DNA of 64,000 bases from Candidatus Amesbacteria bacterium GW2011_GWB1_47_19. GTDB lineage: Bacteria > Patescibacteriota > Microgenomatia > CAZETR01 > Amesbacteraceae. Positions 16,198 through 56,233 of the stretch are shown here, piece after piece. Each line of letters begins with the position of its first letter. Position 1 is the stretch's first letter. The stretch lies in NCBI GenBank assembly GCA_001002325.1, contig LCNZ01000006.1, positions 130 to 64,129 on the forward strand, written 5' to 3'. Both the position numbers and the translations under genes were made by a program. The notes beneath the pieces were generated by a model, which worked only from the letters and a program-made list of their open reading frames with translations, made no database searches and was not told where the DNA came from.

Positions 16198-16219
16198 AGC
16201 TTCATTTTAACTCATAATT

Positions 16220-16468: not shown

Positions 16469-16473
16469 CCTCA

Positions 16474-16515
16474 AAAGAGGTCCTCTTGTGAGGTTGACGC
16501 CTCCTATAGTATTAT
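16474..16515. repeat. REP-like repeat, left copy flanking the RAYT gene
   Basis: Contains 'aagaggtcctcttgtgagg', whose 'aagagg-tc-cctctt' is palindromic, followed by '..gcgcc..tatagtat'. A second copy lies at 17218-17257. Confidence 0.7.
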
Positions 16516-16523
16516 GGCTGATA

Positions 16524-21121: not shown

Positions 21122-21143
21122 TTTACTTCATAAATAGTCAGAT

Positions 21144-22607: not shown

Positions 22608-22612
22608 GTCAG

Positions 22613-26265: not shown

Positions 26266-26303
26266 GCCGTCTAATCATACCAGTATGCTAATATGATTGG
26301 TAG

Positions 26304-41231: not shown

Positions 41232-42878
41232 TCAGGGTAGGTCTTTGGGAGTCAGGGGAGTGGCTGTCCCGGGATCCAAACGGTAAATGTGCGAGAACGA
41301 ATCCTGATAAACCAATCTGTAATTATTAAGGAAATCGGGATTCTGGCGTAAGTGGTTGTCCACTATATCACCCCGGTGAGAGATGACATAAGCTGCGTAA
41401 GCCGAAGGTTCGGCCAAAGCTACATCCCAATAGCGCCTGACACCTTCGGTAATAAAACGCCGCAAAGGAAGCCCTGACCTGAAAAGGAGGGCATCGTTGC
41501 TGGAGGCAGCAACCAGAATCAAACCTTCCGGGGCGTGGTTTTGAATCCAGGCGGCGGCATCATCCAGATATTCTCCGCTGGCTCCCCGGACGCCATCTTC
41601 GATAGTGATAATGTTGTTACCTGTATACATAAGCGCAAACTGAATGACTATGACCGCCAGAGCCAATGCGGCAAATACTTTTTTCCTGCCGGCCAGAAAA
41701 CCGATAGCCAGTGCGGCTGCAGGCAGCATCATTACCCCGTAGCGATCGTTGAACCAGGTATAGGGAGGCAGATCCGGAAGATAAATAACGGAGTGTCCAA
41801 AAAAGAGACTGGTGACGTTGAAAACGAAAGGGGTTAACAGAGCGGCTACCGCCACTTTAACCATGCGTGAATACCGCCCGGAACTGAAGAACATTCCACT
41901 GCCTGCCAGGCTGAGAATGAGTATCCAGGTACCCAGGTTGTAACGGATCGTGAACAGGTAGACAAATAGGGAGTAAATGAAATCGAATTTGGTAGCCAGA
42001 CCGAGCTGGTACATAATGGCATCCTGCTGGGCTTTGGCGGAGAAAGGCCCGGTGACGAAGTAGAAAAAGTCTCCGAAAATTATCCGGTTCCAGAAAAGCC
42101 ATAAGACGATACCGAAACCAGCCAGTGTGCAAAAGAGAAAAAAATTGCCCTGGGCGAAAATCCACCCTTTTTTTTGTTTACCGATATAAGCCACGGCCAG
42201 CCCCATATATGCTAACAGAAACCAGCCGTCGTATCTGGTAATAGTCGTCAAAAAAGTAAAAAATGCCGCTTTGACAAGTGAAGATGTATTCAGGTCTTCG
42301 GTCCATGACAACAGGTAGAACACTGAGGCGATGGTTAAAAATAACAGCAAGGATTCCGTCATGGGGGTGGTTTGCAGGAAGATCAGGTTGGGATTGAGAC
42401 AATACACGGCCAGGCTGATGATAACTGCAGGTGTTGAAAAACGGAGCTTGCCGGAAATCCGAACCAGATAAATACCTCCGAGGACGTAGGAGACCATGGA
42501 AATCAAACTGCCGGCGATACCGCTGTGCCAGAGATAATCATTTGACACCAACGGCAATTCCAGGATGTGGAAAAGAGGCAACCAAACCGATCCGATCTGG
42601 GCAAACCCGGGCTGCAAACTGTCTACCATTCTGCGGGCGATGTTCAGATGAGAACGGGCATCGTTATAAGACAAAGTGAGATTCTGACGGAAATAAAATA
42701 TCCAGGCACCAATACTTATCAGGATCAAAAGGACCAGACACGCGGTCAGAAATCCGGCCGGGTTTCGGACCGGCTCGAGGCGAGTTGAACCAGACAGCGG
42801 CCAGGTTAACGTAATCCGGCGGGAGTTAAGACTGATCATAATCAGATGAGCGGTGGTGCAGATATACCAAGCAAACAC
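41232..42878 (-). CDS. GT-C fold membrane glycosyltransferase-like protein
   Basis: About 540 aa with about 12 TM helices and a C-terminal soluble domain. An alternative start is the ATG at 42839 (MISLNS). Confidence 0.45.
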   Translation of the reverse strand: MFAWYICTTAHLIMISLNSRRITLTWPLSGSTRLEPVRNPAGFLTACLVLLILISIGAWIFYFRQNLTLSYNDARSHLNIARRMVDSLQPGFAQIGSVWLPLFHILELPLVSNDYLWHSGIAGSLISMVSYVLGGIYLVRISGKLRFSTPAVIISLAVYCLNPNLIFLQTTPMTESLLLFLTIASVFYLLSWTEDLNTSSLVKAAFFTFLTTITRYDGWFLLAYMGLAVAYIGKQKKGWIFAQGNFFLFCTLAGFGIVLWLFWNRIIFGDFFYFVTGPFSAKAQQDAIMYQLGLATKFDFIYSLFVYLFTIRYNLGTWILILSLAGSGMFFSSGRYSRMVKVAVAALLTPFVFNVTSLFFGHSVIYLPDLPPYTWFNDRYGVMMLPAAALAIGFLAGRKKVFAALALAVIVIQFALMYTGNNIITIEDGVRGASGEYLDDAAAWIQNHAPEGLILVAASSNDALLFRSGLPLRRFITEGVRRYWDVALAEPSAYAAYVISHRGDIVDNHLRQNPDFLNNYRLVYQDSFSHIYRLDPGTATPLTPKDLP

Positions 42879-44325
42879 CGGAAAAAATTAATATGTATAA
42901 AATGATCGCAAAAATCTGCAAACTGAGGTAGGAAGACAGATAAGTCCGAAAAATAAATGAGCCGGATATCCCGGATTGAAGAAGTGAAAAATTGTGCAGA
43001 AAAGTCAGCCGGGGAATAAGGGAAGCGGATTCGGTTTCAACACTGGGTGGTATCTGGTTGGTAGTCAGAACCCCGGCCAAATTGATGGCCAGACTATAGA
43101 GAAACAGACTAAAAAACAATAAATTAAACCATAACTTCCGGCCATATTTTTCGATAGCTGTGCCTAAAGGCACAGCCAGAAAAGCCATTGCCGGAATCAG
43201 GTAGCGCGGACCAAAGGCCCATCCGCCCCAGGGGTCACCCCACATTCCATAAAGGGCTGTGACGGCAAAAATAACTCCGGCTGCAGTCCATCCGAGGGAC
43301 CGGTCCTTTTTTATCAGAGGAGCCAAACCCAGCAAACCCAATAATAGTACCGGGGTGAAGTAAATCAGCCCCCGGTCGCGGCTGGTTAACAGCACTGAAA
43401 GACTGGCCGGCAATTGCTGGTATTTAAAGAATCCGACAGCCCGGCTGTAATCGGATCCAGAATCCGACCATTCATCCAGAACTGGCTGACCGGTGGTGAT
43501 ATCAAACCGACGAACATTGGTCAAAGTCCCGGCTAACTGAAAAGGATTGTTGTAAGCCAGGCGGTTGTACCATAACAAGGGAATCAATCCCAGTACGAGA
43601 CCGGCAACAATAACCGTTAGTGAAAAGTTTAATGAAACGGAAATTTTGTCCCTAAATGATCGGATGTCCAGGTAGCGATAAGCCAGAAGCAGCAACAGCG
43701 GAATAAAGAAAATCACATTCGGATATTCAACAAAGATACTAAATCCGACCAGAATACCGATTAAAAAAGTCCGTGAGGGTGACCGGGTGAGTTGAAGCAT
43801 ATAAAAACAGGACAACAGCAAAAAAGTGGTCAGATGATGCTGGTAAAAAGTGGCCGAATAGGCCCAAGCCGGAGACGCAAAAGTGAATACCAATCCGGCA
43901 ACCAGACCGGGATACGGATTTCCCAGGAGCCGCCGCAGAATCAGAAATATTAATACCAGGTTAGCCCAGGCAAAAATAGCTGACAAGGAAAAAGTCATGA
44001 TTTGGGCTAACCCCAGGCTTTTGCCAAGTGAATACAGGGGTACCGCTAAAAGTGAAACTCCGGGGGCAAAAAGGGAAACGTATTTTCCCCCGATGTAACC
44101 CAGATCGGGAACCACAAACCGGGCAATAGGGGTGGTGAAGAAAAAAGAATTGTTTTCGACCACGGACATAGTCAGGGCATATCTACCGCGTTCCGGGGAC
44201 AATTCGAAAGGCTGGGACGGACCGCGCAAATTCTCCAATATTTCCTCAGGAGCCGGATTGCCCGGCCGGCCGTGTAAGGTCAGCATCAGGAGCAATCCCG
44301 GCAGGAGAAGGGCAAAGGTTTTCAT
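42826..44325 (-). CDS. GT-C fold membrane glycosyltransferase-like protein (PMT/ArnT-like)
   Basis: 499 aa with an N-terminal signal/TM, an 'ERGRYALTMSVVENNSFFF' loop and about 11 TM helices. Confidence 0.45.
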   Translation of the reverse strand: MKTFALLLPGLLLMLTLHGRPGNPAPEEILENLRGPSQPFELSPERGRYALTMSVVENNSFFFTTPIARFVVPDLGYIGGKYVSLFAPGVSLLAVPLYSLGKSLGLAQIMTFSLSAIFAWANLVLIFLILRRLLGNPYPGLVAGLVFTFASPAWAYSATFYQHHLTTFLLLSCFYMLQLTRSPSRTFLIGILVGFSIFVEYPNVIFFIPLLLLLAYRYLDIRSFRDKISVSLNFSLTVIVAGLVLGLIPLLWYNRLAYNNPFQLAGTLTNVRRFDITTGQPVLDEWSDSGSDYSRAVGFFKYQQLPASLSVLLTSRDRGLIYFTPVLLLGLLGLAPLIKKDRSLGWTAAGVIFAVTALYGMWGDPWGGWAFGPRYLIPAMAFLAVPLGTAIEKYGRKLWFNLLFFSLFLYSLAINLAGVLTTNQIPPSVETESASLIPRLTFLHNFSLLQSGISGSFIFRTYLSSYLSLQIFAIILYILIFSGVCLVYLHHRSSDYDQS

Positions 44326-45365
44326 ACGAACTTAAGCTTTAGTACCCTAGTAATGTTAAATAATCCGGGGCGGCTCTGCAAATAATTAAAAACCGTAATG
44401 GTCAACGACCACCAGGCACGGATCCATAAGTGAGAAGAGTAAATAACTGTAAATTGTGTATAGGAGTGGGGAGTAAAATCCTTTTTGTACCGGTTTGTAC
44501 CCCGGGAAAAATCCAGAGTGTGAAAATTACAGTTCATTGATGTCTGAAGCGATTGGTATAACAGGATACGACCGGGGATCAAATGGGCATATTCGGCTAA
44601 AAAAGCTATTTGATAACAATGGTATGTGCCGTGACTCGCGAAACCAACCTGATAGCTTACCGGCCGGTTCCGGTAATACAATAAATTAACCAGGATAGTC
44701 CCGGGGCGGTATTGATCGATCAGGTTAAAAAGGCGGGCGATGGCCGGTTGGGAAAAGACTTCCTTGTGTTCAGATTTCTTGGTACTGCGTCTCTCGATAT
44801 CCAAAATAACCGGAAGTATGTCAGCGAAGCTCCCGGCGGAAGTTTCCAGGCGGAAACCGTCAGGGTCTGCAGAGATGACTTTACGGATTTGTTTTTTGTG
44901 CTTGGAATTTAAGAAACGGTATGGGTCCGGCTGCAGGGGAAGAATCCAACCGACCGAAGAAAAAAAGATTTTCATACAGGGATCCGACGAAAAGAGAGAT
45001 TTATGAATCTCGGGAGTTTCACTAAGATAGACATTTCGTAATTCTTTTAATTTGATTAACAACTCCCCGGTTATCAGAGGGTCCCGCTCCAGCAACAGAA
45101 GGGACGACCGATCCAGATATTGGTTACCGGGAGGAATAAAGCACTTAATACCCCATTTGCGGGTTTGGACCAACGGCAGGACGGCAACCAGCGCCGAATT
45201 CCGATATACAGCCAAAATGGCTAACATGGAGTAATTGAAAACTGAACGGCAGGCAAGAAACCAAGCGGGAGAGTTGAAAAGATGACCGGAGTCCGACCGA
45301 TCCCACAGGTCCTGCCAGGATGTAAGCAACCCGGCGGTTAAAGAATAGTAAATTTCAGACTGCAT
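44322..45365 (-). CDS. GNAT-fold FemAB/CelD-like acyl/aminoacyl-transferase (uncertain)
   Basis: 347-aa soluble protein. Its size and two-lobed pattern resemble Acetyltransf_6/FemAB-like proteins. No strong motif was seen. Confidence 0.3.
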   Translation of the reverse strand: MQSEIYYSLTAGLLTSWQDLWDRSDSGHLFNSPAWFLACRSVFNYSMLAILAVYRNSALVAVLPLVQTRKWGIKCFIPPGNQYLDRSSLLLLERDPLITGELLIKLKELRNVYLSETPEIHKSLFSSDPCMKIFFSSVGWILPLQPDPYRFLNSKHKKQIRKVISADPDGFRLETSAGSFADILPVILDIERRSTKKSEHKEVFSQPAIARLFNLIDQYRPGTILVNLLYYRNRPVSYQVGFASHGTYHCYQIAFLAEYAHLIPGRILLYQSLQTSMNCNFHTLDFSRGTNRYKKDFTPHSYTQFTVIYSSHLWIRAWWSLTITVFNYLQSRPGLFNITRVLKLKFV

Positions 45366-46113
45366 AGTAATAAATTTCCCGGGATAAAGGAGGGATACCT
45401 GCAGGAAAAACCGCCGGAGTTTGAGAACGGTAACCGGAAATAAGCCGGTGTCTGACCGTCGGACTCACGGGTAATACACTTTTGTGAAGGTGGTGCTGAC
45501 CGATAAATTTCATGTCAGGGCGAAATTTCTGATTGTAGGGGAAATCACACCAGTAAATTACCCTGTTAGGCAACTGAGAACATATATTCCGAATAATGAC
45601 ATGGTCTACATGACGGCCGATTGACAGGGGAGCGAAAACCACTGCCTCTGAAGGTACCGCCCGTGACAGCCGGTGTGATAATTTATCTATTAGACCGGAA
45701 TCAGCGGGTGACGATTTTCCGGTAACTACATGCCAGCGATAGGTGGGATAGACGGCTCCAAGCTCGGGAATGAAACTGCCCGGGAATCGTTTTTTTCGGC
45801 GCCAGAGAGCGTCCGTATAATCCAGATCAATTGGTTTTATTCCCAATGTTTTTAGAATCCCGGCATCTTCCCGTTTGCGGATGATAAACAACCGCCGGGC
45901 ATCCGGGCTGCCGCACTGGCGGAGGTAGACGGCGGCTGACAAAGTCGGACGGAGGTTATCCGCACGGGTAAAAACGTTAATAATTTTCACCTGGGTTTTG
46001 CGGGAAAGCCGCGAAATCAGTCCACCCGCGGAGAAAACTGCATCATCCAGATGTGGAGAAATGAAGTAAACTGGTAAACGATGCTCAATAATGCGATCTA
46101 TCAATTTTTTCAT
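45355..46113 (-). CDS. PIG-L/LmbE family N-acetylglucosaminyl deacetylase
   Basis: The N-terminal 'YFISPHLDDAVFSAGGLI' matches the PIG-L 'HPDD' zinc-binding motif. Confidence 0.6.
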   Translation of the reverse strand: MKKLIDRIIEHRLPVYFISPHLDDAVFSAGGLISRLSRKTQVKIINVFTRADNLRPTLSAAVYLRQCGSPDARRLFIIRKREDAGILKTLGIKPIDLDYTDALWRRKKRFPGSFIPELGAVYPTYRWHVVTGKSSPADSGLIDKLSHRLSRAVPSEAVVFAPLSIGRHVDHVIIRNICSQLPNRVIYWCDFPYNQKFRPDMKFIGQHHLHKSVLPVSPTVRHRLISGYRSQTPAVFPAGIPPLSREIYYYAV

Positions 46114-48116
46114 AACAAAGCTTTGTTTAAATAATCAGAGTAACTGACAGCGGTTTTTTTCCACGAAAATTTCTCCGCTAATAACTTTGCCCGGTGGGAC
46201 AACTTTTGTCTTAAATGCGGATCGTTAACCAATTTTATCAAAGCTTCACCAAATGCCCGGTGATCGAAAGCACGGACCTTTATACCGCAGTTGTCAGGAA
46301 GCCACTTCAAACCATCGATATCGAAGCAGACGAAAGGAATACCTGAAGCCAGTGTTTCCAGAGCTACAAGTGGAAAGGTTTCAAACCGGGACGGCAAAGC
46401 CATAACCAAAGTCCGGGCAAAAAAGCGTGACCGCTCTCTCCCGCGTACTAATCCTGTCAGTTTTGCCCGGGAGTCCAGATGAAGATGGTTGATCAGTGAT
46501 TTGAGGCGGTTTATTTCACCCCGGCTGCCGCTTCCGGCGATATACAGGTCATGAGGCAAGTTACCGGTGATGTGTTTGAAAGACTGCAATAAAAGATCCA
46601 ATCCTTTCTGGTTGACTTCAATCCGGCCGATAAACGAAATATTCCTGGGGCGGTAAGCCGAATCCGCGGGATAGACGGGAGAAGTGACTCCGTTGGGAAT
46701 CCACACCACATCTGTTTGAGGACTAATTTTTTTAATCTGTTTGCTGTAGAAAGGGGAGGGGGAAATAATCCGACGGTACAGCCTGAGTCCCAGGTTTTCA
46801 ACACTGACAAACGGAAGAAGATATTTACGCTGCATATCCGCTCCGGCCAGCATATGAGCCAGTCCAATGACCGGTTTACGGGTGAAAAGCGGAAGAAAAG
46901 CCGTGGAAAAGGGAGGGGTAAAACTTTCCATCCAGATATCATATCGGCCAAACATAACTCTGAAAGGAATCAGACACAAAAATGCCAGCTGACCGAATTT
47001 CCCTCCCAAAACGGAAATTCCTATCCGGCGATAAGAAACCCCATCCAGTATCAGGTCTGAGGAAAAGGGGTATTTTCCCGTGATGACCGTGATATCAAAG
47101 TGACCTGCCAATCTTTTGGCAATCTCGTGAACAGCGACCGCTCCCCCACCACCATACCAGGGATTGCGAAGATCGTCGTATGAGGAAATTACAAGAACAG
47201 GTTTGAAACTTCTCTTGGTGGAACCGGCCATTTCCCATGGCAGGCGGGTGCGGTTCTTGTTCACCCTGGTGAAACGGCTTAGGAAAAAAATCATAAACAG
47301 AGCGAGCGGAAAAGATAGAGGCCGGTGCCGCAAGGACTTGAGAATTCCTGATAGGAGGTATTTCCTGGGAATTACATAATCGGAAACGGTAGGGTAACCG
47401 AACAGTCTGTCCAGTTCAGGCTGGGGTTTGGAAAAAGAGCGGTTGGCCAACTTAAAATAATCGCTCCAGGTTGAAGGAGGCCAGTAGGTTATGACTGCGG
47501 ACCGGCAATAGCGGAACGCTCCCGCTTTTACGGCTGTGAGATAGATGTATAAGCGCAGTTCGGAGGACTCTACTGGTATGCGTAGAGTATCTGAGAAAGA
47601 TTTTCTGAAGGCGGTGGCGGCACCATAGAAATTTTGAACATGGTTAAAACCTGGAACGCTTAAGCGAATATCGTCCCACATGGCGAAACTGGAATGAATC
47701 AACCCGCCCGCAATGCCCGGCGGCCGGAGCGGAATCTGATGTGCGGCCATCATACCCGCCCGGGGATCGGCAACAATTGCCGAAACCAGTGTGGTCAAGA
47801 ATTTGCGCCCTACCAGATTTATGTCCGCGTCCAAAGCTACTAAAATATCGCTGTGATTAAGCCGGAATAGCTGATTTAAACGGAAGGGTTTTCCCTTACG
47901 GGTCCGGGCTGATACCAACTGTACCAAGGGAAAACGGTGACTGAATTGCCTGACTAAATCCTGTGTGGTATCAGAACTGCCGTCGGAAATCACCAGTATT
48001 CGTTCCAACGTGAAGCCTGTCCGGTTTTGGCCGAGGACTGATTCCAAAATATGTCCGATGTTCCCGGCCTCGTTGAAAGCAATGATTCCCACAGTGAGGG
48101 AAGGAATACGGGCCAT
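46110..48116 (-). CDS. bifunctional glycosyltransferase: N-terminal GT2 + C-terminal GT4
   Basis: The N-terminus has 'LTVGIIAFNEAGN ... ILVISDGSSDTT ... ALDADINL'. The C-terminus has 'FETFPLVALETLASGIPFVCFDIDG' (E-x7-E). An ATGA overlap joins it to PIG-L. Confidence 0.7.
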   Translation of the reverse strand: MARIPSLTVGIIAFNEAGNIGHILESVLGQNRTGFTLERILVISDGSSDTTQDLVRQFSHRFPLVQLVSARTRKGKPFRLNQLFRLNHSDILVALDADINLVGRKFLTTLVSAIVADPRAGMMAAHQIPLRPPGIAGGLIHSSFAMWDDIRLSVPGFNHVQNFYGAATAFRKSFSDTLRIPVESSELRLYIYLTAVKAGAFRYCRSAVITYWPPSTWSDYFKLANRSFSKPQPELDRLFGYPTVSDYVIPRKYLLSGILKSLRHRPLSFPLALFMIFFLSRFTRVNKNRTRLPWEMAGSTKRSFKPVLVISSYDDLRNPWYGGGGAVAVHEIAKRLAGHFDITVITGKYPFSSDLILDGVSYRRIGISVLGGKFGQLAFLCLIPFRVMFGRYDIWMESFTPPFSTAFLPLFTRKPVIGLAHMLAGADMQRKYLLPFVSVENLGLRLYRRIISPSPFYSKQIKKISPQTDVVWIPNGVTSPVYPADSAYRPRNISFIGRIEVNQKGLDLLLQSFKHITGNLPHDLYIAGSGSRGEINRLKSLINHLHLDSRAKLTGLVRGRERSRFFARTLVMALPSRFETFPLVALETLASGIPFVCFDIDGLKWLPDNCGIKVRAFDHRAFGEALIKLVNDPHLRQKLSHRAKLLAEKFSWKKTAVSYSDYLNKALL

Positions 48117-48119
48117 AGA

Positions 48120-51100
48120 TCAGGAAGCGGGGACAAAAGCCTGTCCCGGGTGGCGGTCGGATAATTTTTCCCCGAAACGGGAGCGGATGAGACATAGCAA
48201 CGATGCCGCCTGGATATCCCAATCGAAATGCCGGGCCCAAATACCAGCCTGGGCGGACAACTGACGGCGAACGTCTGAGTGACGGATAAGAAAACCCATG
48301 GCCGCAGTCAAGGCCGAGACGTCGGCGTTGGGCACCAGCAGCCCGGTCTGGCCATCCCGGACGGAATCACGCAAACCGACTACATTTGAAGCAATGACCG
48401 GAGTGGAACAAATATTGGCCTCGATGACGGTTATACCCCAGCCTTCAAAAGAAGAGGGCTGGAGCATTGCCCAAGATGAAGATAATAAATGGATCCTCTC
48501 TTTGTCACTGACACGGCCGAGAAAACTGACCCGCGTTTCTATGCCCAGACGGTCGGTTAAAGCCCGTAGGGATTTGATGCTTTCTCCATCACCTGCGATA
48601 TTCAGCCTGGCGTCGGGGTGATCCGTTAATATCCGGGCGAAAGCCCTGACAGCAATATCAATCTGCTTGTAAGGACGGACCCGACCTAAATACAGGAAAG
48701 AGGGGTAACTGGTTTTTGGAGACTGGTAAAGGAACTGCCGGAGATCTATTCCGGGGTTAATGACGGAAATATTCTCTGTCCGAGCCAAACCGAGGGCGGC
48801 AATATCTTTACGAGATGATTCGGAAACGGTGATGACCGGCTGGTTATGATAGACCAGAGGGGCAATCCCGGCTTCCAGGAATTTGGCAATCTGAGCCAGC
48901 GGGAAACGGACATGGCGGATGAAATAATCCTGATGGACATGGTGGATGAGTAAAAATTTGGGAATCCGGGAATAGAGGGGGGTAAAAAACGGAATACCGT
49001 TTTCGCTGTCGATGATAATGTCATAGTGACCCCGGAACCGGAAGAGATAATATAAAACCGCCCAGATATACACGGTATAGAAGCCTCCCCGGCGGATGAT
49101 CCGGATTCCGTCGATGACTTCGGTACCGGGATGCTGCCGGTCGTTGCCGCAAAAGAGCGTTACTTCATGTCCGGCAGTCACCCAGCGTCTGGCCAGTTCG
49201 TGCAAATATACCTCGGCGCCTCCGGCCCAGACATGGCGGATATCGCGCCAGTTGAAAATAAGGATCCTGATATTGCCACCGGTTCCGGCGGCAGGCGCCG
49301 GCAGAAGGCGGAAAAGTCCGGCTAAATCCCGCAGAGCCAGGGTAACATCGGCCAGTTTGGCTTGTATGCCGTGACAGATCAGGACCAGCCCGAGATACAA
49401 ACCGGAGGATATGAGGATAATGGTAGAAAAATCCCTGATATTCCGGTGATAAAGGGTGATTCCCGCCAGCAACAGAATGGCTAGGAAGACGGATAGCAGG
49501 GAGAAATAGTAATGCTTTCTGGCCTGGTGGTAGCTGACGATGGCTCCGGCCATAGCAAAACTGCACATAGCCAGACAGTAACCGGTCAGATAGGGAATTA
49601 TCGGTATTGCCCTGGACCCCAGGATAAAAGGAACGGTGTATCTACCCAACGGCCCTAAAATAATCAGGGCAATAGAGGAACTGAAAATTGTAGCCCCGAG
49701 AAGCCTGTAAAAAGTCCGGTTGGGGTTTTGTTGTGCGCCTTCAGAATGGCTGACCAGCGGGTTGACGAACTGACTGAAAAGTGTGCCGGCGAAAAAGACA
49801 ATTTTTCCGATCAGGGACAACAGGGTATAGTAACCGGCCTGTTCGGGAGAAAGATAGTGTTTGGCCAGTATCACATCCAAGCTTAAGAAAATCAGGGAGG
49901 AGAGAGACACCAAAGCCGATGAGCTGAAAAACTTGCCGGGAAAAGTAAGAAAATTCCGGGGCAAATCATATGTGACAGATTTAGCACTGAAACGTTTGAC
50001 CATGATAAAAGCAATGAGCAGGGCGCCGAACGTGGCCAGGGGGATTGCGATATAAATGTATCTTTCCCAGCCTGCCGTGACCAGAAAAACAGTCAGCAGA
50101 AGCTTGATTACCGACTCGGCCAGAATAACCGCAGACAAAGAAATAAAGCGGAGATTTCCGGATAAGAAACCGGAATCGACGGCCAGTAACGCGGCTATGG
50201 GCCAAAGCGGGGTGATCAGCAGCAGTGGTAAGACTGATTCCAGCCGGAAAAAATACGAGATGCCAGGAATCGTGATAATCCATGCCACAGTAACCAACAG
50301 GGAAATGGTCAATGCCCGACTACGGGTGAATAACCAGAACTGCAGGGTGGGAAGACGGTGGCGACCCAGCAGATATGCACTGCGATGTGAAACAGTCCGC
50401 GCCACGGCACCCAAAGGGATTTGACTGATATAGATCAAACCCGCTGCAAAACCGATAAGGCCGTAATCGGCAACAGACAATACCCTGCCCAAGAATACGT
50501 TGTATACAAAATTGATAAAGTTGGCGATGATTGTGGCTGTCACCAGAACCAGACCCGGTGACGGCTGCGGCCGCCAACCTCCCGGAACCGGCACGTGCGG
50601 TAAAGAGATGCCGAGACGAAAAGTCCGGCTTTTTTGCCGCGGCGCCAAATGCAAACCATGATGGGTCTTTTCCCAATAATGAGGCTTGACTATGAGCTGG
50701 TATACTGCTTTCAGGCCGGCCAGACTGATGAGAAACCAATACACGGGAATTAAATAAACGTATTTGATCTGATCCCACAAACCCCGCCGGGCACAGCCCA
50801 GCATGTAATAGTAGAGGAAAATAAAATTTCCAAAGATGGTACAGAGGACAGCCAGATAGTAAATCGGACCGGAATAGAGAGTTTCCATGAGGGGGCCGGC
50901 CTGGGCACGGAAAACGAAATATGACAGGGTAGCCAGCCACAGCAGCGGATTTATCAGCATGAAGAGAATCTTGCCGCCGATTACCAACTGAAAAATAAGA
51001 GCATGAATACCCCGGGTTTTCCAAAATCTCAGAGGGTGGCGGTTGTGGACTAAATAGGTCTGGATGTAACCTTTTATCCACCTGGAACGCTGGCGCATCC

Positions 51101-52121
51101 AGTTTCCCAGATGGCTGTTGGCTTCCTCCAGGGTAGTAGAGTCGATCATGGCTGTCCGATAGCCCTTTAAAAATAACCTTATTCCCAAATCGCAATCTTC
51201 AGTAACATTAAAAGCGTCCCACCCAGCCAGCTGGCGAAGTATGTGGGTACGGAAATGATTGGAAGTGCCACCCAGGGGGATGGTGGTGCCCAGAGACTGA
51301 AGGCCGGGTAAAATTATGTCAAACCACAGTGAATATTCGGCGGTAAACAGCCGGGTGAGTAAGTTGTGGTTGGGGTTATAGTAATTCAATTTGGCTTGTA
51401 GGCAAACCACCTTCGGGTTGACTTGCTGAAAAGCCAGATATGCCTTTTTTAGCTGTTGGGGGTCCGGTTGATCTTCGGCATCGTAGATAACCACGTATTT
51501 TCCCCGGGCGATTGCCAGCCCGTAATTACAGGCTTTGGGTTTGGTTTTTGGCAGAGTATCGGGTACAATTACTACTCTGATGTGTTTTGGCAAATTGATA
51601 GCAGATACTGCCCGAAAAGTCTCAGAATCGTCTGCTTCCAATAACAAGATTACGTCAAGTTTTGATTTGGGCCAATCCAAACGGTTGATAGAAGTCAAAA
51701 AGTGCCTAAATACCGCTGATTCCTTGTACATGGGACACAGGATGGAATAAACAGGCAGATCGGACTCATCAAGCTTTTTCAGCCGTTGGGGCGAAAAAGT
51801 GATCTCCTGTGAGCGGTGCATACTGCGGCTGACCAAAGCTAAATTAAAAAGGCCATCGATGAAATAAATTAGACTCAGAACTGTGACTGTGAAAATTCCC
51901 GTGGAAATAGGATTGAACCATAACGATAAGAGAAAAGCCAAGGTTGTAACGGTGAGCAATAGTTTCTGCCATCCGACCAGGGTAATCAGGGCAGAACTAT
52001 CCACGGGTAGAACTGTATGGGTGATGAACCGGCGCATTTTCCAGGCTACACCCGCACCTAACTGGGACGAAACAGTGGAGGGAGGAATCGGGGTAACCAC
52101 ATTCAGACGGTGAGATGACAT
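48120..52121 (-). CDS. 1333-aa tri-domain protein: processive GT2 synthase-like domain + MOP/Wzx-like multi-TM domain + C-terminal GT4 domain
   Basis: The GT2 domain has 'VYSILCPMYKE', 'VIYDAEDQPDP', 'TEDCDLGIRL' and 'QRSRW' (QxxRW). The middle domain has about 14 TM helices with Wzx-like 'LVTATIIANFINFVYNVFLGRVLSVADYGLIGF'. The GT4 domain has 'FEGWGITVIEANICSTPVIASNVVGLRDSV'. Confidence 0.7.
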   Translation of the reverse strand: MSSHRLNVVTPIPPSTVSSQLGAGVAWKMRRFITHTVLPVDSSALITLVGWQKLLLTVTTLAFLLSLWFNPISTGIFTVTVLSLIYFIDGLFNLALVSRSMHRSQEITFSPQRLKKLDESDLPVYSILCPMYKESAVFRHFLTSINRLDWPKSKLDVILLLEADDSETFRAVSAINLPKHIRVVIVPDTLPKTKPKACNYGLAIARGKYVVIYDAEDQPDPQQLKKAYLAFQQVNPKVVCLQAKLNYYNPNHNLLTRLFTAEYSLWFDIILPGLQSLGTTIPLGGTSNHFRTHILRQLAGWDAFNVTEDCDLGIRLFLKGYRTAMIDSTTLEEANSHLGNWMRQRSRWIKGYIQTYLVHNRHPLRFWKTRGIHALIFQLVIGGKILFMLINPLLWLATLSYFVFRAQAGPLMETLYSGPIYYLAVLCTIFGNFIFLYYYMLGCARRGLWDQIKYVYLIPVYWFLISLAGLKAVYQLIVKPHYWEKTHHGLHLAPRQKSRTFRLGISLPHVPVPGGWRPQPSPGLVLVTATIIANFINFVYNVFLGRVLSVADYGLIGFAAGLIYISQIPLGAVARTVSHRSAYLLGRHRLPTLQFWLFTRSRALTISLLVTVAWIITIPGISYFFRLESVLPLLLITPLWPIAALLAVDSGFLSGNLRFISLSAVILAESVIKLLLTVFLVTAGWERYIYIAIPLATFGALLIAFIMVKRFSAKSVTYDLPRNFLTFPGKFFSSSALVSLSSLIFLSLDVILAKHYLSPEQAGYYTLLSLIGKIVFFAGTLFSQFVNPLVSHSEGAQQNPNRTFYRLLGATIFSSSIALIILGPLGRYTVPFILGSRAIPIIPYLTGYCLAMCSFAMAGAIVSYHQARKHYYFSLLSVFLAILLLAGITLYHRNIRDFSTIILISSGLYLGLVLICHGIQAKLADVTLALRDLAGLFRLLPAPAAGTGGNIRILIFNWRDIRHVWAGGAEVYLHELARRWVTAGHEVTLFCGNDRQHPGTEVIDGIRIIRRGGFYTVYIWAVLYYLFRFRGHYDIIIDSENGIPFFTPLYSRIPKFLLIHHVHQDYFIRHVRFPLAQIAKFLEAGIAPLVYHNQPVITVSESSRKDIAALGLARTENISVINPGIDLRQFLYQSPKTSYPSFLYLGRVRPYKQIDIAVRAFARILTDHPDARLNIAGDGESIKSLRALTDRLGIETRVSFLGRVSDKERIHLLSSSWAMLQPSSFEGWGITVIEANICSTPVIASNVVGLRDSVRDGQTGLLVPNADVSALTAAMGFLIRHSDVRRQLSAQAGIWARHFDWDIQAASLLCLIRSRFGEKLSDRHPGQAFVPAS

Positions 52122-52176: not shown

Positions 52177-52581
52177 CTACAGGTCTATCAGAATGTCTAA
52201 TTTCCGGAGGCTGATAAGGACCGAGGCCGTAACAACTCCGAGACTGTCAATGGCGACATCCCGATACCGGGGCTCACGCCCGGGAACAAGGCTCTGGTGG
52301 TATTCATCGGTGGAGGCGTAAACTACAGTTACCAGCAGGGTGAGTAATATCAATACCACCCGGGAATATTCGGTACTTTGTTTGAGCGCCCGGAATATCA
52401 GGACTGCCAAAATAAAATACTCTATAAAATGAGCTGTTTTTTTGACGATGAAATCCTGCCAGTAGATTTGGGAAGTATGCATTGCAGGGCGGGAGGAAAA
52501 CCAGAAAATAAGACACATCCATAAAACAACAGGTATCCAGCCATAAATTTTGTGGTAGGAAATCATCTTTCGAGTATACAA
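52177..52581 (-). CDS. VanZ-like family membrane protein
   Basis: 'HFIEYFILAVL...DEYHQSLVPGREPRYRDVAIDSLGVV' matches the VanZ (PF04892) pattern. Confidence 0.65.
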   Translation of the reverse strand: MYTRKMISYHKIYGWIPVVLWMCLIFWFSSRPAMHTSQIYWQDFIVKKTAHFIEYFILAVLIFRALKQSTEYSRVVLILLTLLVTVVYASTDEYHQSLVPGREPRYRDVAIDSLGVVTASVLISLRKLDILIDL

Positions 52582-53472
52582 CTAAAGCACGGAAGGGGGG
52601 GAAGCTTTGCGGAATACCAACAACAGACCGGATGTAACAAGAGCCACAATTCCCGCTCCGATGAGCAGCCAACCACCCAGGTTTGAAGATGAATCATTTG
52701 CTCCGGTAACAGGCTCATCCGCACGCAAAGCGATGTCCGAATCCCCCAACACCACGGGTGTGGGAGTATTGAGCACCTCCCGGTCCGCATTCTCTAGTAA
52801 GCTTTGGAAATCCGGCCAGGTAGGTTCCGCCAGCGACCGGATGGGGGAGGCGGTGCTGCGGTTCACGACCGGGGTAAGTGTGGATGTGGCCGATGGTTTG
52901 GGAGTGGAGGTGGGTTTGGGAGTGGAAGACGGTTTGGGGGTGGATGAAGGAGCGGTGGTGGGAGTGGAGGTGGGCGGAACGGGGGTATTTGTGGGGCCAG
53001 TAGTGGGGGTAGGGGTGAGAGAGGGACCGGTAATGATTATTGCCTGTTCGGGGCTCCACTCGGCAGAACTGTTTTCCCCGGCTGTATAGCGGCCGACTTT
53101 GAAAAAATAACCACCGGGACCGGCGTATTTTGAGTCAGTGGGCTCAGGTTTGATTTTCAATTTTCCGCTCCATGAACCCTCGGTCAAATCGCTCTCCCCC
53201 ACCCGAAAATATTGAGTCCGGTCGGAAGAGGTGCCGATCCAGCTGCCGGAATTGTTTTGGGTCAGACCGAAGTAATTTGATCCCGATGGATAAAATGCAC
53301 CCCGCAGATACGAATCCTTACACCCCGAACAGGACATGTTTACTATGATTTCTGTTTCCTGATCCTTATCAATAGATGCAGGCAAACCTGAAAAATTTAC
53401 TGTAACGGCATAGACAGAAAGAGGGAAAAAAAGAAAGGAGAATACAATGATTAACTTCTCACCCCATTTCAT
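52582..53472 (-). CDS. secreted protein with Pro/Thr-rich linker and C-terminal TM anchor, hypothetical
   Basis: Signal peptide, a ~150-aa domain, '(TPKPSS)n'-like linker, then C-terminal 'LGGWLLIGAGIVALVTSGLLLVFRK'. Confidence 0.55.
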   Translation of the reverse strand: MKWGEKLIIVFSFLFFPLSVYAVTVNFSGLPASIDKDQETEIIVNMSCSGCKDSYLRGAFYPSGSNYFGLTQNNSGSWIGTSSDRTQYFRVGESDLTEGSWSGKLKIKPEPTDSKYAGPGGYFFKVGRYTAGENSSAEWSPEQAIIITGPSLTPTPTTGPTNTPVPPTSTPTTAPSSTPKPSSTPKPTSTPKPSATSTLTPVVNRSTASPIRSLAEPTWPDFQSLLENADREVLNTPTPVVLGDSDIALRADEPVTGANDSSSNLGGWLLIGAGIVALVTSGLLLVFRKASPPSVL

Positions 53473-53535
53473 AATTCCAACTATACACCAGCATTATTAC
53501 ATTGGTGTTCCGCAGATACAGACGATGGTTTTTTT

Positions 53536-53564
53536 AGCCTTCACACTCCCGGTGTGTGAAGGCT
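53536..53564. terminator. strong hairpin downstream of the M23 peptidase gene (non-canonical terminator candidate)
   Basis: An 11-bp stem, agccttcacac / gtgtgaaggct, with loop tcccggt. The run on the minus-strand transcript is A7, not U, so function is uncertain. Confidence 0.3.
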
Positions 53565-53566
53565 GA

Positions 53567-54646
53567 TTACTGTACGTGGAGAAAGAAGGTCTTGAGACCG
53601 GAACCGTGGTCGATGTACTTAATTTTGAGATCGGAAGACCCGCATTTCTGGGTGGAAGAATATAAAATTCCGTCGGCAACGGCTTTGATGACGTCCTGAT
53701 TGCTGACCATGTCGATGCCGGTATGGGTACCACCGCTGTAAATATAGCGGTATGAATACGGAGTTTTTCCGTAGCGTTGAGTGATTTCGATGTCCCCGGA
53801 AATTGGCCAGTTCCAGTTGCCTGAACCAATATTTAAGCCCCATTTATCGGATATCTTCTTTAAATATAACTCGGCGTTGACCCAGGTATCATTAAGCCGG
53901 ACTTCAAAATGCAGGTGTTTGCCGGTGCTGCAGCTGGGATAACCGGTATTACCTACCAGAGCGATGGGGTCACCGGCTTTGACCGGGCCTTCTCTGATAC
54001 CGGTAGCCAACGCGGTCTGAATAGCCGCCAGCTCCAACCGGGCGGACTCCAGCTGTTTCTCGTAAACAGCCTCGCTATTTTTGGTCTGCAGAAGAAGATT
54101 ATCTTTTTCCTCCCTCAACCCTGCCAGAGTTTTTTTCTGAACTTCCAGCTTTTTTTGGGCATCTTCGACTAAGGTTTTTTGGCGGGCATAATTTAGTTGA
54201 ATAACCTGGGTATCATGCAAAATACGGCGGTTGTTGGCCTGAACGGTCTGGGCATATTTTAGTCTGGATAATAGAAGAGAAAAGTTTGTACTCGATAACA
54301 TTATTTGAAGTGGATCCAATGACCCTTGTTTATAGGTATGCACTATTTGTTTTTCCAATATTAACGACCGTTGCAACAGGCGTGTCTCTAAAATATTTAT
54401 TTTTCCGGATAATGAGGCAATCATGTCCTCGGTTTGTGATATTTTTAGCGTATTCAGGGCAATTTGAACATCATAGTAGGTGACCTGATCTGCCAGAGTT
54501 TTAGCCTGTGTCTGGAGTTCGGTGATTTTCTTTTCTAATTCTTTGATCTGATTTTCCTTGTCTTCGAGTTCGGAGGCCCGGACGACCGGCAAAGCAAGCG
54601 TCAGAATACAAAGCAAACTAATGCAAAAAATACGAATATTCTTCAT
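53567..54646 (-). CDS. M23/LytM family peptidoglycan metalloendopeptidase with N-terminal coiled coil (EnvC/PcsB-like)
   Basis: N-terminal signal/TM, a long heptad-rich region, and C-terminal 'GKHLHFEV' plus 'HTGIDM' M23 motifs. It lies directly downstream of ftsX. Confidence 0.75.
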   Translation of the reverse strand: MKNIRIFCISLLCILTLALPVVRASELEDKENQIKELEKKITELQTQAKTLADQVTYYDVQIALNTLKISQTEDMIASLSGKINILETRLLQRSLILEKQIVHTYKQGSLDPLQIMLSSTNFSLLLSRLKYAQTVQANNRRILHDTQVIQLNYARQKTLVEDAQKKLEVQKKTLAGLREEKDNLLLQTKNSEAVYEKQLESARLELAAIQTALATGIREGPVKAGDPIALVGNTGYPSCSTGKHLHFEVRLNDTWVNAELYLKKISDKWGLNIGSGNWNWPISGDIEITQRYGKTPYSYRYIYSGGTHTGIDMVSNQDVIKAVADGILYSSTQKCGSSDLKIKYIDHGSGLKTFFLHVQ

Positions 54647-55521
54647 GATTTAAGGAAACGCCGGGTAGCAAGCAACCCGCCCAGGCCACCAACCAGCGAT
54701 CCCAAAATCAGTTCACCGCCCAGGACTTCCAGCATAAATACCGGGGTAGGATAAAGTTCCGGAATCTGAAAAATGAAAGTGGACAAAAACGGTGTGGAGT
54801 AAAGAAAAGCCAGATAAGTGATCCCCCAGGCAATAGATGCTCCCAGGAAACCGTATAACATGCCTTCGAGAATGAAAGGAGCGGTCACGAAGCTCCGGGT
54901 GGCACCCATTAGCTGAAGGATGGTTATTTCTTCCTTGCGGCTGGTAACCCGGGCTCCGATCACCGAAAGAATAACTATAAAAGTGATAAATATCTGGGAG
55001 GAAGTCAGGGCGATGCGTGCGGTACGGACAGATCGGGTCCAGCGGATAAGAGTAAATACCACATCTTCCGCAAACCGGACTTCCTCGATCCCCTCCTCCT
55101 TTTTGAGTTGGTCGGCCAGAGTTTTGAGCTGGGCGGGATCTTTGGCCGAAACTTCCAGGGAAGCGGGTAACATGTTGGAGGTGACTGCTTCCAATAGCAG
55201 GGGGTCGGTGGAATTAAGTTCTTTGTAGATGCGCAGTGCGTCTTCTTTGGAAATATATTTGAAATTTTCCACCAGGCCGGTAGATTCCAAGCGGGAGCGA
55301 ATAAGCTCCACCTGCTGGGAGGTGGGGGTGATATCAGCTTTGAAGAAAGCATTAACCTGGGGCCGGGTTTCAAAAAAGCGGAGGATCTTGTGAGCTGCTG
55401 CAGCGTCCAAAAAAAAGACGGTGGCAGAAAAAAGGGTCAGTGAAACTACTAATAGGGAGATGAGAGTCTGGTACGGAGTGCGGCGCAGGCGCTGCCAGGC
55501 TGTTTTGAAATATTTATTCAT
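54643..55521 (-). CDS. ftsX: cell division permease-like protein FtsX
   Basis: Topology of TM1, a large extracytoplasmic loop, then three C-terminal TM helices. The gene overlaps ftsE. Confidence 0.8.
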   Translation of the reverse strand: MNKYFKTAWQRLRRTPYQTLISLLVVSLTLFSATVFFLDAAAAHKILRFFETRPQVNAFFKADITPTSQQVELIRSRLESTGLVENFKYISKEDALRIYKELNSTDPLLLEAVTSNMLPASLEVSAKDPAQLKTLADQLKKEEGIEEVRFAEDVVFTLIRWTRSVRTARIALTSSQIFITFIVILSVIGARVTSRKEEITILQLMGATRSFVTAPFILEGMLYGFLGASIAWGITYLAFLYSTPFLSTFIFQIPELYPTPVFMLEVLGGELILGSLVGGLGGLLATRRFLKS

Positions 55522-56233
55522 ATTTACCTTTGGGTGTATCTTTGGTTAATTTACCGTTTTCCAATGTAATCACCCGCAACCCATAACGGTTGACGATATC
55601 CGCGTTGTGGGTGGCCATAATTACCGTTGTTTTCAGCTCTGAATGGATATCTTTTAAAAGCGAGACAATGCTCCGGGCAGTTTTAGGATCCAGATTTCCG
55701 GTGGGCTCATCCGCCAAAAGCAGTTTGGGTTTGCCGACTATTGCCCTGGCAATGGCTACCCGTTGGAGTTCACCTCCGGATAGTTGACTGGGAAAAAGTG
55801 AACTGCGGTCGGACAGACCAACCATCTGCAAAGCAATCTTGACCGCTGCAAAAACATCACCTGGTTTGGCAAACCTAACCTCAAGTGGCAGGGAGACATT
55901 TTCCCAAACACTGCGGTCCGGGAGAAGCTTGAAGTCCTGAAAAATCGGTCCCAAATGACGGCGATAATGAGGCAGATCCCGGGTGGAAAGTCTGGACAGA
56001 TGGTGGCCGTCAACAACCAATTCCCCGGAATTCGGCTTCAGATCGCGTAGAATCAGACGAAATATGGTAGTTTTTCCAGATCCGGAGGCTCCGGTTAAGA
56101 AAACAAATTCACCCGCATCAACAGAGAAGGAGACGTCACCCAAAGCTGTGATATTTCCGAATTTCTTGGTGACATTACGGGCAGTTACCATGTCTAGTCC
56201 AAAATTTTGACGCGACCTACGTCCATTAGCCAA
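55514..56233 (-). CDS. ftsE: cell division ABC ATPase FtsE
   Basis: Walker A 'GASGSGKTT', signature 'LSGGELQRVAIARA', Walker B 'LLLADEPTGNLD'. It is paired with ftsX. The true start may be the Met at 56191. Confidence 0.85.
   Translation of the reverse strand: MANGRRSRQNFGLDMVTARNVTKKFGNITALGDVSFSVDAGEFVFLTGASGSGKTTIFRLILRDLKPNSGELVVDGHHLSRLSTRDLPHYRRHLGPIFQDFKLLPDRSVWENVSLPLEVRFAKPGDVFAAVKIALQMVGLSDRSSLFPSQLSGGELQRVAIARAIVGKPKLLLADEPTGNLDPKTARSIVSLLKDIHSELKTTVIMATHNADIVNRYGLRVITLENGKLTKDTPKGKYE

Follow-up and report, generated by a model that had tools for sequence, protein, structure and literature searches.

A conserved single-chain fusion of a synthase-type GT2 core, a MOP-superfamily module and a GT4 glycosyltransferase in Microgenomates bacteria

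A single open reading frame (ORF) in a 64,000-nucleotide stretch of Candidatus Amesbacteria bacterium GW2011_GWB1_47_19 (contig LCNZ01000006.1, positions 130 to 64,129; hereafter the window) encodes a 1333-amino-acid (aa) protein in which a predicted complete synthase-type GT2 core is followed by a linker, a Wzx-type flippase module of the MOP superfamily and a GT4 domain, in the order GT2syn–linker–MOP–GT4. Surface polysaccharides are usually said to arise by one of three separate routes, which depend on a synthase, on Wzx/Wzy or on an ABC transporter; in this protein, a complete synthase core and a Wzx-type flippase module share one chain, and an entire class of Candidate Phyla Radiation (CPR) bacteria has conserved the arrangement. 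We tentatively favour the reading that the protein is a backbone synthase fused to the flippase and the glycosyltransferase of a lipid-linked glycosylation branch, which the downstream deacetylase, acyltransferase and GT-C-like genes would complete. The parts of the protein are the following, where counts out of 120 refer to the homologs listed by our homology search:

50652..51980, minus strand: predicted GT2 synthase core, aa ~48-490, delimited by Pfam, a BcsA match, AlphaFold2 and Foldseek, and alignment to standalone relatives
51078..51092, minus strand: QRSRW motif (the QxxRW signature of synthase-type GT2), aa 344-348, in 120/120 homologs and invariant in an alignment of 80 sequences
50655..50678, minus strand: YWEKTHHG motif, closing the synthase core (within KPHYWEKTHHG), aa 482-489, in 119/120 homologs
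50565..50651, minus strand: inter-module linker, aa ~491-519, Pro/Gly/Arg-rich and predicted to be disordered
49332..50564, minus strand: MOP-superfamily (Wzx/PST-like) module of 12 predicted transmembrane (TM) helices, aa ~520-930, delimited by hydropathy, AlphaFold2, Foldseek and relatives
48177..49268, minus strand: GT4 domain (GT-B fold), aa ~952-1315, starting at the conserved RILIFNWRD
48420..48446, minus strand: EX7E motif, EGWGITVIE, aa 1226-1234, in 111/120 homologs

The ORF (48120-52121, minus strand) opens with ATG and runs through 1333 codons to its stop with zero internal stops. Its product is 100% identical to a protein deposited for the same organism under the name 'Family 2 glycosyl transferase', and copies of exactly this sequence lie on 11 contigs, which come from several sources and are up to 357 kb long. 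Among the matches listed, the homology search returned at least 120 protein clusters with 48-61% identity and 91-100% query coverage (117/120 covering >=97%), drawn from NCBI, JGI, ENA and Logan assemblies and hosted by Ames-, Gottesman-, Woese-, Roizman-, Beckwith-, Shapiro-, Curtiss- and Levybacteria. Contiguous GT2syn and MOP modules were also found in dozens of GTDB species-representative genomes, many of them Patescibacteria-type metagenome-assembled genomes (MAGs), including those of Dojka- and Daviesbacteria. The catalytic motifs are kept in 111-120 of the 120 homologs, and both domain junctions are flanked by conserved sequence, YWEKTxHG before the first and RILIFNWRD at the start of GT4. 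An error of assembly or gene calling could in principle have joined two or three adjacent genes in frame at the domain junctions, and some genomes do have split versions, broken between GT2syn and MOP. Against such an error stand the several sources of the identical protein, the 119 further clusters from independent assemblies with the same collinear arrangement, the GTDB representatives and the conserved sequence at both junctions; we reject it as practically inconceivable. The fusion is a genuine conserved protein, and its recurrence lies far beyond chance.

Many MAGs labelled 'uncultured Gammaproteobacteria', 'Bdellovibrionales' or 'Pseudomonadales' (L010, L013, L015-L017, L021 and others) carry the full Patescibacteria-type GT2syn+MOP fusion at 44-57% identity; these bins have probably been assigned to the wrong taxa.

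The GT2 module shows the layout of a membrane-integrated synthase, with two N-terminal TM helices (aa ~54-97), a GT-A domain, an interface helix bearing QRSRW and C-terminal TM or interface helices. Its Pfam matches are Glyco_tranf_2_3 (aa 125-351, E 1.7e-21) and Glyco_trans_2_3 (aa 209-429, E 2.4e-25), and the sequence of the core matched BcsA at E 2e-8. The motifs EADD (162-165), YDAED (213-217), TEDCD (307-311) and QRSRW (344-348) supply the D, DxD, TED and QxxRW signatures of synthases, which are invariant across the 80 aligned sequences and present in 117-120 of the 120 homologs. A hydropathy scan placed two TM helices before the GT2 domain and three or four after QRSRW, and an AlphaFold2 model of aa 40-960 (mean predicted local distance difference test, pLDDT, 88.5; predicted template modelling score, pTM, 0.65) set the GT-A domain between the N-terminal helical pair and the C-terminal helices. 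Searched against the PDB with Foldseek, the GT2 half of this model retrieved the hyaluronan synthases (HAS) of Xenopus (XlHAS1; E 4e-10, 484 columns) and a Chlorella virus (CvHAS), the BcsA proteins of E. coli and Rhodobacter, and PcManGT; the alignments spanned 447-506 columns for XlHAS1, CvHAS and BcsA, and 415-506 with PcManGT included. The closing YWEKTxHG pattern, aromatic-x-(K)-T-x-(H)-G, may resemble the FxVTxK gating loop of cellulose synthases (BcsA). Sequence and model together point to a complete membrane-integrated synthase core of the HAS/BcsA type. The module shares with HAS, BcsA, PgaC and IcaA the four GT-A motifs, the two N-terminal TM helices and the helices after QxxRW; it differs in that identity to them is only 13-19%, that the window protein has no PilZ domain and is extended by MOP and GT4, that its scores against the NCBIfam CelA and PgaC models are far below the cut-offs, and that the window operon includes no BcsB or PgaD partner.

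The closest relatives of this core outside the fusion are separate genes. In a scan of GTDB genomes, the GT2 core alone (aa ~41-490) recurred with 46-57% identity in cultured Paenibacillus, Nocardioides, Paraconexibacter and Desulforamulus and also in Chloroflexi, Ktedonobacteria, Kiritimatiellae and Aquificota. The two examined in detail have lengths of 745-765 aa and come from Paenibacillus macquariensis and Desulforamulus aeronauticus. Their C-terminal ~450 aa align end-to-end with aa ~48-490 of the fusion protein at 47-48% identity, have every motif in common with it, including the terminal YWEKTxHG, and stop ~12 residues past YWEKTxHGL. Both carry DUF4388 and the c-di-GMP (cyclic dimeric GMP) receptor domain MshEN at the N-terminus. 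Their loci are as follows:

L061 9191-17740: Desulforamulus aeronauticus synthase locus, with a BcsB-domain protein (E 7e-45), a GT2-GtrA fusion, ManC and ManB as neighbours
L068 3625-14471: Paenibacillus macquariensis synthase locus, with an NTP-transferase, a DPM1-like GT2 and a PMT_2 GT-C protein as neighbours

Far outside the CPR, the family of the GT2 core is linked to a DPM1-like GT2 in both examined relatives (GtrA-fused in one) and to a PMT_2 GT-C protein in the other, a likeness to the system of the fused proteins. Gene content of this kind is the signature of two joined systems, one for synthase-dependent exopolysaccharide under c-di-GMP control and one for lipid-linked glycosylation. 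Judged by sequence, the standalone MshEN-GT2 group of Firmicutes, Actinomycetota and Chloroflexi is the true family of the GT2 core. The two examined proteins differ in their N-terminal DUF4388 and MshEN domains, in ending after the core and, in one case, in the BcsB-like neighbour, whereas the CPR protein is without MshEN or a BcsB neighbour and carries MOP and GT4, usually with an N-terminal GT2 as well. A characterized MshEN-GT2 synthase is E. coli NfrB (PMC8669469). NfrB was rejected as a close relative, at 23% identity to the window core and with its MshEN at the C-terminus, and is a functional analogue of the MshEN-regulated relatives only. The Firmicute DUF4388+MshEN+GT2 synthase systems are apparently uncharacterized, and they are experimentally tractable relatives of the CPR core. 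Judged from ORF sizes alone, Paenibacillus apparently has two tandem triplets of an NTP-transferase, a ~765-aa and a ~340-aa gene.

For the middle module, hydropathy gave twelve TM helices within aa 524-916. The query block was aligned with 43 relatives (44 sequences, 22-37% identity), and the AlphaFold2 model from this alignment also had 12 TM helices, in the two-lobed MOP fold, with pLDDT 93.1 and pTM 0.90. Against the PDB, Foldseek returned 56 matches to this model at E<=1e-3, and the 50 listed were all MOP transporters (MATE, WzxE, MurJ) with query-normalised TM-scores (TMq) of 0.53-0.77. The best were human MATE1 (TMq 0.77), the lipid II flippase MurJ (TMq 0.71) and the lipid III flippase WzxE (TMq 0.68, target-normalised TMt 0.70) over ~420-440 columns, TM-scores to WzxE and MurJ lying at 0.65-0.71. 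The MOP half of the aa 40-960 model independently matched MATE, Wzx and MurJ. By sequence, aa 515-950 scored 16.6 bits against Polysacc_synt (threshold 28.2; E 0.005), collinear with profile positions 6-247 of 274, and a single-sequence PDB search with the MOP block gave nothing meaningful. Matches to orexin and cholecystokinin G-protein-coupled receptors in a PDB profile search (E down to 5e-6) were disregarded as compositional matches between TM helices. Because the query block alone lies below the Pfam threshold, its identity as a MOP module rests on relatives and fold. In a phmmer search of 1.84 billion representative proteins, 2718 relatives of the block were found at E<=1e-3, many of them standalone proteins of 410-470 aa. 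When the 44 aligned sequences were scanned singly, 19 matched Polysacc_synt (best 7e-18), 11 Polysacc_synt_3 (best 3e-19), 4 MatE and 1 MurJ, families that all belong to the MOP superfamily. The polar residues N537, R546, D749, K754 and K773, located in TM1/2 and TM7/8, are 91-100% conserved in the same alignment. Functionally important residues of WzxE are K17, R44, R239 and D262 (PMC11706664), and by analogy R546, D749, K754 and K773 may be comparable to them in kind, in the same helices.

The window also encodes a canonical Wzx/PST flippase (14719-16197, minus strand), to which the fused module gave only a marginal hhalign match (E 1e-3); for this reason we regard the fused module as a divergent subfamily and reject the idea that it is a recent copy of the canonical protein. 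It shares the 12-TM fold with WzxE and MurJ and, like GacK (PMC8035078), is encoded together with glycosyltransferases and GT-C-like proteins; unlike them, it is placed covalently between two glycosyltransferase modules and falls below the Pfam threshold. A further difference from the Wzx pathway is that neither Wzy nor an initiating transferase was found among the window operon genes scanned.

Between the two membrane modules, the positively charged linker has pLDDT <50 at protein aa 492-518 (model residues 453-479). Its length varies among homologs: 25-82 aa separate WEKTxHG from the conserved Asn in TM1 of the MOP module. Given this low pLDDT and the overall pTM of 0.65, the membrane modules are best described as tethered, not confidently docked. 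The topology is consistent in that both glycosyltransferase domains have to be cytoplasmic, the linker carries positive charge and twelve TM helices would bring the chain back to the cytoplasm for the GT4 domain.

The GT4 domain is covered by Pfam Glyco_transf_4 (aa 967-1128, E 5e-18) and Glycos_transf_1 (aa 1137-1292, E 1.4e-35). Its best NCBIfam matches are MshA, Agl16, EpsE and BshA, all far below the cut-offs; the PelF model scored 40 bits (cut-off 100; E 2.5e-10), and many other GT4 families scored higher. A 'GT4-conflict' Pfam match was rejected as a sign of a defence system, since Glycos_transf_1 matches much more strongly in an overlapping stretch and the surrounding genes are those of glycan biosynthesis.

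The preliminary description of this DNA, made from the letters and ORF translations, had proposed one polypeptide with three domains, and the single uninterrupted ORF, the Pfam matches, the folds and the relatives bear this out. Its synthase-type GT2 domain with D, DxD, TED and QxxRW motifs agrees with the motifs found and with the XlHAS1, CvHAS, BcsA and PcManGT folds, and its complete GT4 (E-x7-E) domain agrees with the two Pfam halves and EGWGITVIE. The flippase-like character of the middle block stands on fold and relatives, but its size has to be corrected from about 14 to 12 TM helices and from ~450 to ~410 aa (~520-930). The same description had raised the alternative that this block is the channel of the synthase itself; we reject it, since the GT2 core has a TM region of its own and ends at aa ~490, as the standalone homologs do. 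It had also supposed the architecture to be undescribed. In a full-text literature search, with subscription journals outside its coverage, no paper describing or interpreting a synthase-MOP-GT4 fusion was found. JGI automatic names already pair 'cellulose synthase/PNAG synthase-like' with 'glycosyltransferase', and one relative's record name joins 'O-antigen/teichoic acid export' with 'glycosyltransferase'. Thus each module is of a known kind and the exact sequence is public under a generic name, but the fusion is so far undescribed.

A census of architectures with hidden Markov models (HMMs) built from each module placed the window protein in a minority. Among the 120 listed homologs, 105 are GT2n-GT2syn-MOP-GT4, 14 are GT2syn-MOP-GT4 (the window type) and 1 has a duplicated first domain, so that 106 of the 120 carry a further GT2 at the N-terminus. 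The extra ~230 N-terminal residues of these long forms make up a full PF00535 GT2 domain (E 6e-24), whose best PDB relatives are Pyrococcus DPMS (1.6e-19), ArnC (1e-15) and GtrB (3e-10), that is, enzymes of the polyprenyl-phosphate-sugar-synthase type. The window protein starts ~45 residues before its first TM helix and does not have this domain. The GT2+GT4 gene next to it was considered as the displaced N-terminal GT2 and rejected, at only 21% identity over 94 aa.

The MOP subfamily itself is found in many combinations. Among 149 representatives, 76 are MOP alone, 35 MOP-GT4 and 12 MOP-GT2; further forms are MOP-GT4-GT2, MOP-GT2-GT4, MOP-GT4-Acetyltransf_6 (P0162) and three- and four-domain forms. 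Fused and split versions, which the preliminary description had proposed to survey, both exist, and the split forms break at the disordered linker. At locus L087, GT2n-GT2syn (747 aa) and MOP-GT4 (831 aa) are separate genes, the first overlapping the beginning of the second, and the usual operon follows; this pair amounts to the four-domain protein split exactly at the linker. Locus L089 has the order GT2n-GT2syn, PMT_2-like GT-C, MOP-GT4-Acetyltransf_6, GT2+GT4 and PIG-L, which is the gene content of the window in another fusion state. Because split and re-fused variants occur, the modules can be taken to belong to one pathway, and these Rosetta-stone fusions and split operons indicate that this MOP subfamily works with cytoplasmic glycosyltransferases. 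Three odd relatives were also seen, MOP-MOP-GT4 (P0248), GT2syn-MOP-GT4-GT4 in only 896 aa (P0163) and GT2n-MOP (P0157); some of these may be fragments or HMM over-calls.

The gene for the 1333-aa protein opens a conserved operon, which continues downstream with five further genes:

46110..48116, minus strand: GT2+GT4 glycosyltransferase, 668 aa, assigned by Pfam
45355..46113, minus strand: PIG-L family de-N-acetylase, 252 aa (Pfam E 7e-11)
44322..45365, minus strand: Acetyltransf_6 (FemAB-like GNAT) acyltransferase, 347 aa (Pfam E 6e-17)
42826..44325, minus strand: GT-C-like polytopic membrane protein, 499 aa (PMT_2 E 1.7e-4, below the gathering score)
41232..42878, minus strand: second polytopic membrane protein, 548 aa, with ~9 hydrophobic segments

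The link of these genes to the fused protein recurs elsewhere: the same GT2+GT4 gene follows MOP-GT4-Acetyltransf_6 in L089, and the Acetyltransf_6 domain is fused to MOP-GT4 in P0162. The 499-aa protein matches the LA_3751/LA_3752 family at E 2.4e-14, below the cut-off, and has orthologs of 33-38% identity in L001, L003, L004 and L087. No family match was found for the 548-aa protein itself in profile scans, and it is 38% identical to L001_523 and 23% to L089_572, which is itself a weak PMT_2 match. The operon is conserved in kind across Ames-, Woese- and other Microgenomates, with methyltransferase, GT2s, deacetylase and GT4, and sometimes with an APH-type kinase and a hexapeptide acyltransferase. 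A deacetylase, either PIG-L or Polysacc_deac_1, is present in every operon inspected, and the operon of the Microgenomates relatives always ends with two unannotated polytopic proteins of ~500-545 aa that are orthologous across loci (33-38%). The 'self-contained' synthesis and export machine of the preliminary description is therefore an overstatement: the operon supplies further GT2 and GT4 domains, a deacetylase, an acyltransferase and two GT-C-like proteins, most relatives have a fourth domain, the modules are not confidently docked, and split forms exist.

These observations allow us to propose a role for the fusion. We suggest that the GT2 module would use a nucleotide sugar on the cytoplasmic side to polymerise a backbone glycan, which it would extrude through its own TM region, and that the flexible cytoplasmic linker would tether this synthase to the 12-TM MOP transporter. 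The MOP module, in turn, may flip a polyprenyl-phosphate-linked sugar or short oligosaccharide. The cytoplasmic GT4 domain would help to make this lipid-linked substrate together with the GT2+GT4 protein, the PIG-L deacetylase and the FemAB-like acyltransferase, and in most relatives the N-terminal polyprenyl-phosphate-sugar-synthase-type GT2 would join its assembly. Finally, once the donors have been flipped, the two GT-C-like terminal proteins could draw on them outside the membrane, so that the polymer is decorated, extended or anchored. A precedent for the lipid-linked branch is multi-component transmembrane glycosylation, in which a C55-P-sugar synthase, a flippase and a GT-C transferase act together, and in which the Wzx-type GacK is proposed to flip C55-P-GlcNAc (GlcNAc, N-acetylglucosamine) between GacI and GacL (PMC8035078). 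Systems of this kind combine GtrB/CsbB GT-A enzymes, GtrA or Wzx, and GT-C. The long forms resemble them in joining a DPMS/ArnC/GtrB-like GT2 to a flippase-type module, and the window does so in the GT-C-like proteins that end its operon and in the GT2-GtrA and GT2-PMT_2 fusions encoded elsewhere in it. The window protein differs from such systems in being without the GtrB-like domain and in adding a synthase core and GT4, and the GT-C matches are sub-threshold.

Several points weigh against this proposal. QxxRW and the cellulose-synthase-like fold also occur in PcManGT, an enzyme of N-glycan biosynthesis that is not known as a polymer synthase, and the fold therefore does not by itself prove that the GT2 module is processive. 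After QRSRW, the chain has to cross the membrane an even number of times, but three long helices are predicted there and the count of crossings is ambiguous. AlphaFold2 does not dock the synthase and MOP modules, so that physical cooperation beyond tethering is unsupported. The polyprenyl-phosphate-sugar-synthase domain common to most relatives is not part of the window protein, and its activity would have to be supplied by other window genes; separate DPM1-like GT2 genes do occur elsewhere in the window. The terminal operon pair, having sub-threshold matches only, is GT-C-like, not GT-C. Neither a BcsB-like partner nor a c-di-GMP receptor was found in the window operon or in the operons of CPR relatives examined, and neither an initiating phosphoglycosyl transferase (Glycos_transf_4, Bac_transf) nor Wzy was found among the operon genes scanned in the window and in six related loci. 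The identities, boundaries and folds of the modules, the conservation of motifs and operon and the spread of fused and split forms are shown by the analysis; that the GT2 module is processive, what the MOP module flips, which sugars are used and what the GT-C-like proteins do is inferred.

Some of these points would fit a purely lipid-linked, Wzx/Wzy-like line, which we consider somewhat unlikely. All glycosyltransferase domains, the synthase-like GT2 included, would then be non-processive and, on the cytoplasmic side, add single sugars in turn to an oligosaccharide linked to polyprenyl-(di)phosphate; the MOP module would flip the finished unit, the terminal polytopic proteins would polymerise or ligate it outside, and the fusion would be a concatenation of steps. 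Such a line would account for the highest target-normalised fold score of the GT2 module being that to PcManGT (TMt 0.70), a minimal cellulose-synthase-like GT2, for the many additional GT2 and GT4 genes within the operon and for the absence of BcsB-like and c-di-GMP partners in the CPR operons examined, and the structurally solved MOP flippases with known substrates (WzxE, MurJ) do act on lipid-linked oligosaccharides. However, the GT2 module is no peripheral glycosyltransferase, having kept the whole TM region of the HAS type, and of its 46-57% identical standalone relatives the two examined carry MshEN and one has a BcsB-like neighbour, which are hallmarks of synthase-dependent secretion. 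No initiating phosphoglycosyl transferase was found in the seven operons inspected, and the terminal proteins match PMT_2/GT-C below the cut-offs, not Wzy or O-antigen-ligase families.

The deacetylase and its neighbours bring in a second alternative, to which we give little credence, namely a glycolipid or lipoglycan anchor pathway resembling that of phosphatidylinositol mannosides and lipoarabinomannan (PIM/LAM) or of glycosylphosphatidylinositol (GPI). GT4 would add GlcNAc to a membrane lipid, PIG-L would de-N-acetylate it and the FemAB-like enzyme acylate it; the MOP module would flip the glycolipid and the GT-C proteins would extend it outside with polyprenyl-phosphate sugars from the DPMS-like GT2, the synthase-like GT2 making the first glycolipid or a linked polymer. 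In keeping with this, PIG-L adjoins GT4 enzymes whose best NCBIfam matches, MshA and BshA, are GlcNAc transferases, a neighbouring GT4 weakly matches GlcNAc-phosphatidylglycerol synthase, the long forms have a DPMS-like domain and the operon has GT-C-like proteins. All of these supporting family matches, however, are far below curated cut-offs, and no MOP transporter is known to flip diacylglycerol- or phosphatidyl-linked glycolipids. In other lineages a Polysacc_deac_1 deacetylase replaces PIG-L, which argues for a generic N-deacetylation step and not for a specific GlcNAc-lipid deacetylase.

The same deacetylase could also act like PelA, if the protein were a Pel-like second synthase. The MOP module would then correspond to PelG and GT4 to PelF, a pair that makes and exports a polymer without flipping lipid-linked units, and the chain would hold two tandem synthase machines making two polymers or a block copolymer. 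The Pel system indeed combines a GT4, a MOP-type membrane protein and a deacetylase in one polysaccharide pathway; MOP-GT4 is the commonest fusion of the MOP subfamily (35/149 representatives), every operon inspected has a deacetylase, and GT4 does match PelF weakly. We nevertheless hold this to be very doubtful. The PelF score stays at 40 bits against a cut-off of 100 with many other GT4 families above it, no PelD-, PelE- or PelA-like partner was detected among the window neighbours, and the window GT4 and MOP differ from Pel in being covalently linked and joined to a GT2 synthase. The MOP-GT2 fusions, whose GT2 is of the polyprenyl-phosphate-sugar-synthase type, fit lipid-linked flipping better, and PelG itself is not known to have a proven transport role.

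The reading that we prefer, a backbone synthase joined to a lipid-linked branch, has a bolder extension. In such a hybrid route, the synthase channel and the MOP module would be held together so that the emerging backbone is modified or anchored by flipped units, making the principal non-peptidoglycan envelope polymer of Microgenomates; we regard this as distinctly unlikely. If it were true, the location of the gene beside FtsEX-PcsB-like division and hydrolase genes would tie the machine to the surface growth of ultra-small, host-dependent bacteria.

No principle is overturned: the modules are of known kinds, and fusion of consecutive pathway steps is common. The fusion can serve as a Rosetta stone for the partners and substrates of an otherwise unannotated MOP subfamily (the 2718 representative proteins above), and it provides a link to widespread, apparently uncharacterized standalone GT2 synthases. 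Because two cultured Firmicutes carry the standalone synthase with a c-di-GMP-receptor domain, the chemistry of the pathway could be worked out in them. It also offers a concrete candidate for the envelope glycan of CPR organisms, whose surface chemistry is essentially unknown.

Directly upstream of the fusion gene, all on the minus strand, are genes for FtsE (55514-56233), FtsX (54643-55521), a peptidase of the M23/PcsB-like kind with a coiled coil (53567-54646), an unannotated protein of 296 aa that has one hydrophobic segment at either end (52582-53472) and, 55 bp from the fusion gene, VanZ (52177-52581); VanZ is absent in the related Amesbacteria locus L001. This gene order (52177-56233) matches the 'patescibacterial VanZ-2 operon', made up of an ABC system, a coiled-coil peptidase, a TM protein and VanZ, and VanZ families are reported to associate with MviN_MATE-clan flippases (PMC12419801). 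On the 3′ side of the glycan operon, both here and in L001, are a fibronectin-type-III protein (39202-40053, minus strand) and a sortase (38670-39212, minus strand), which suggests a co-located function in surface-protein anchoring.

A second glycosylation island occupies 13077-28522 on the minus strand, and it contains the following:

14719-16197, minus strand: canonical Wzx/PST flippase already mentioned (Polysacc_synt_3 E 1e-45)
18862-20370, 21144-22607 and 22613-24064, minus strand: three PMT_2-type GT-C proteins
20354-21121, minus strand: DPM1-like GT2
24064-26265, minus strand: GT2+PMT_2 fusion
27380-28522, minus strand: GT2+GtrA fusion
16524-17210, minus strand: IS200-like Y1 transposase (PF01797, E 6e-10), inside the island

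This genome devotes many genes to lipid-linked extracytoplasmic glycosylation, and consecutive steps of it are fused repeatedly.

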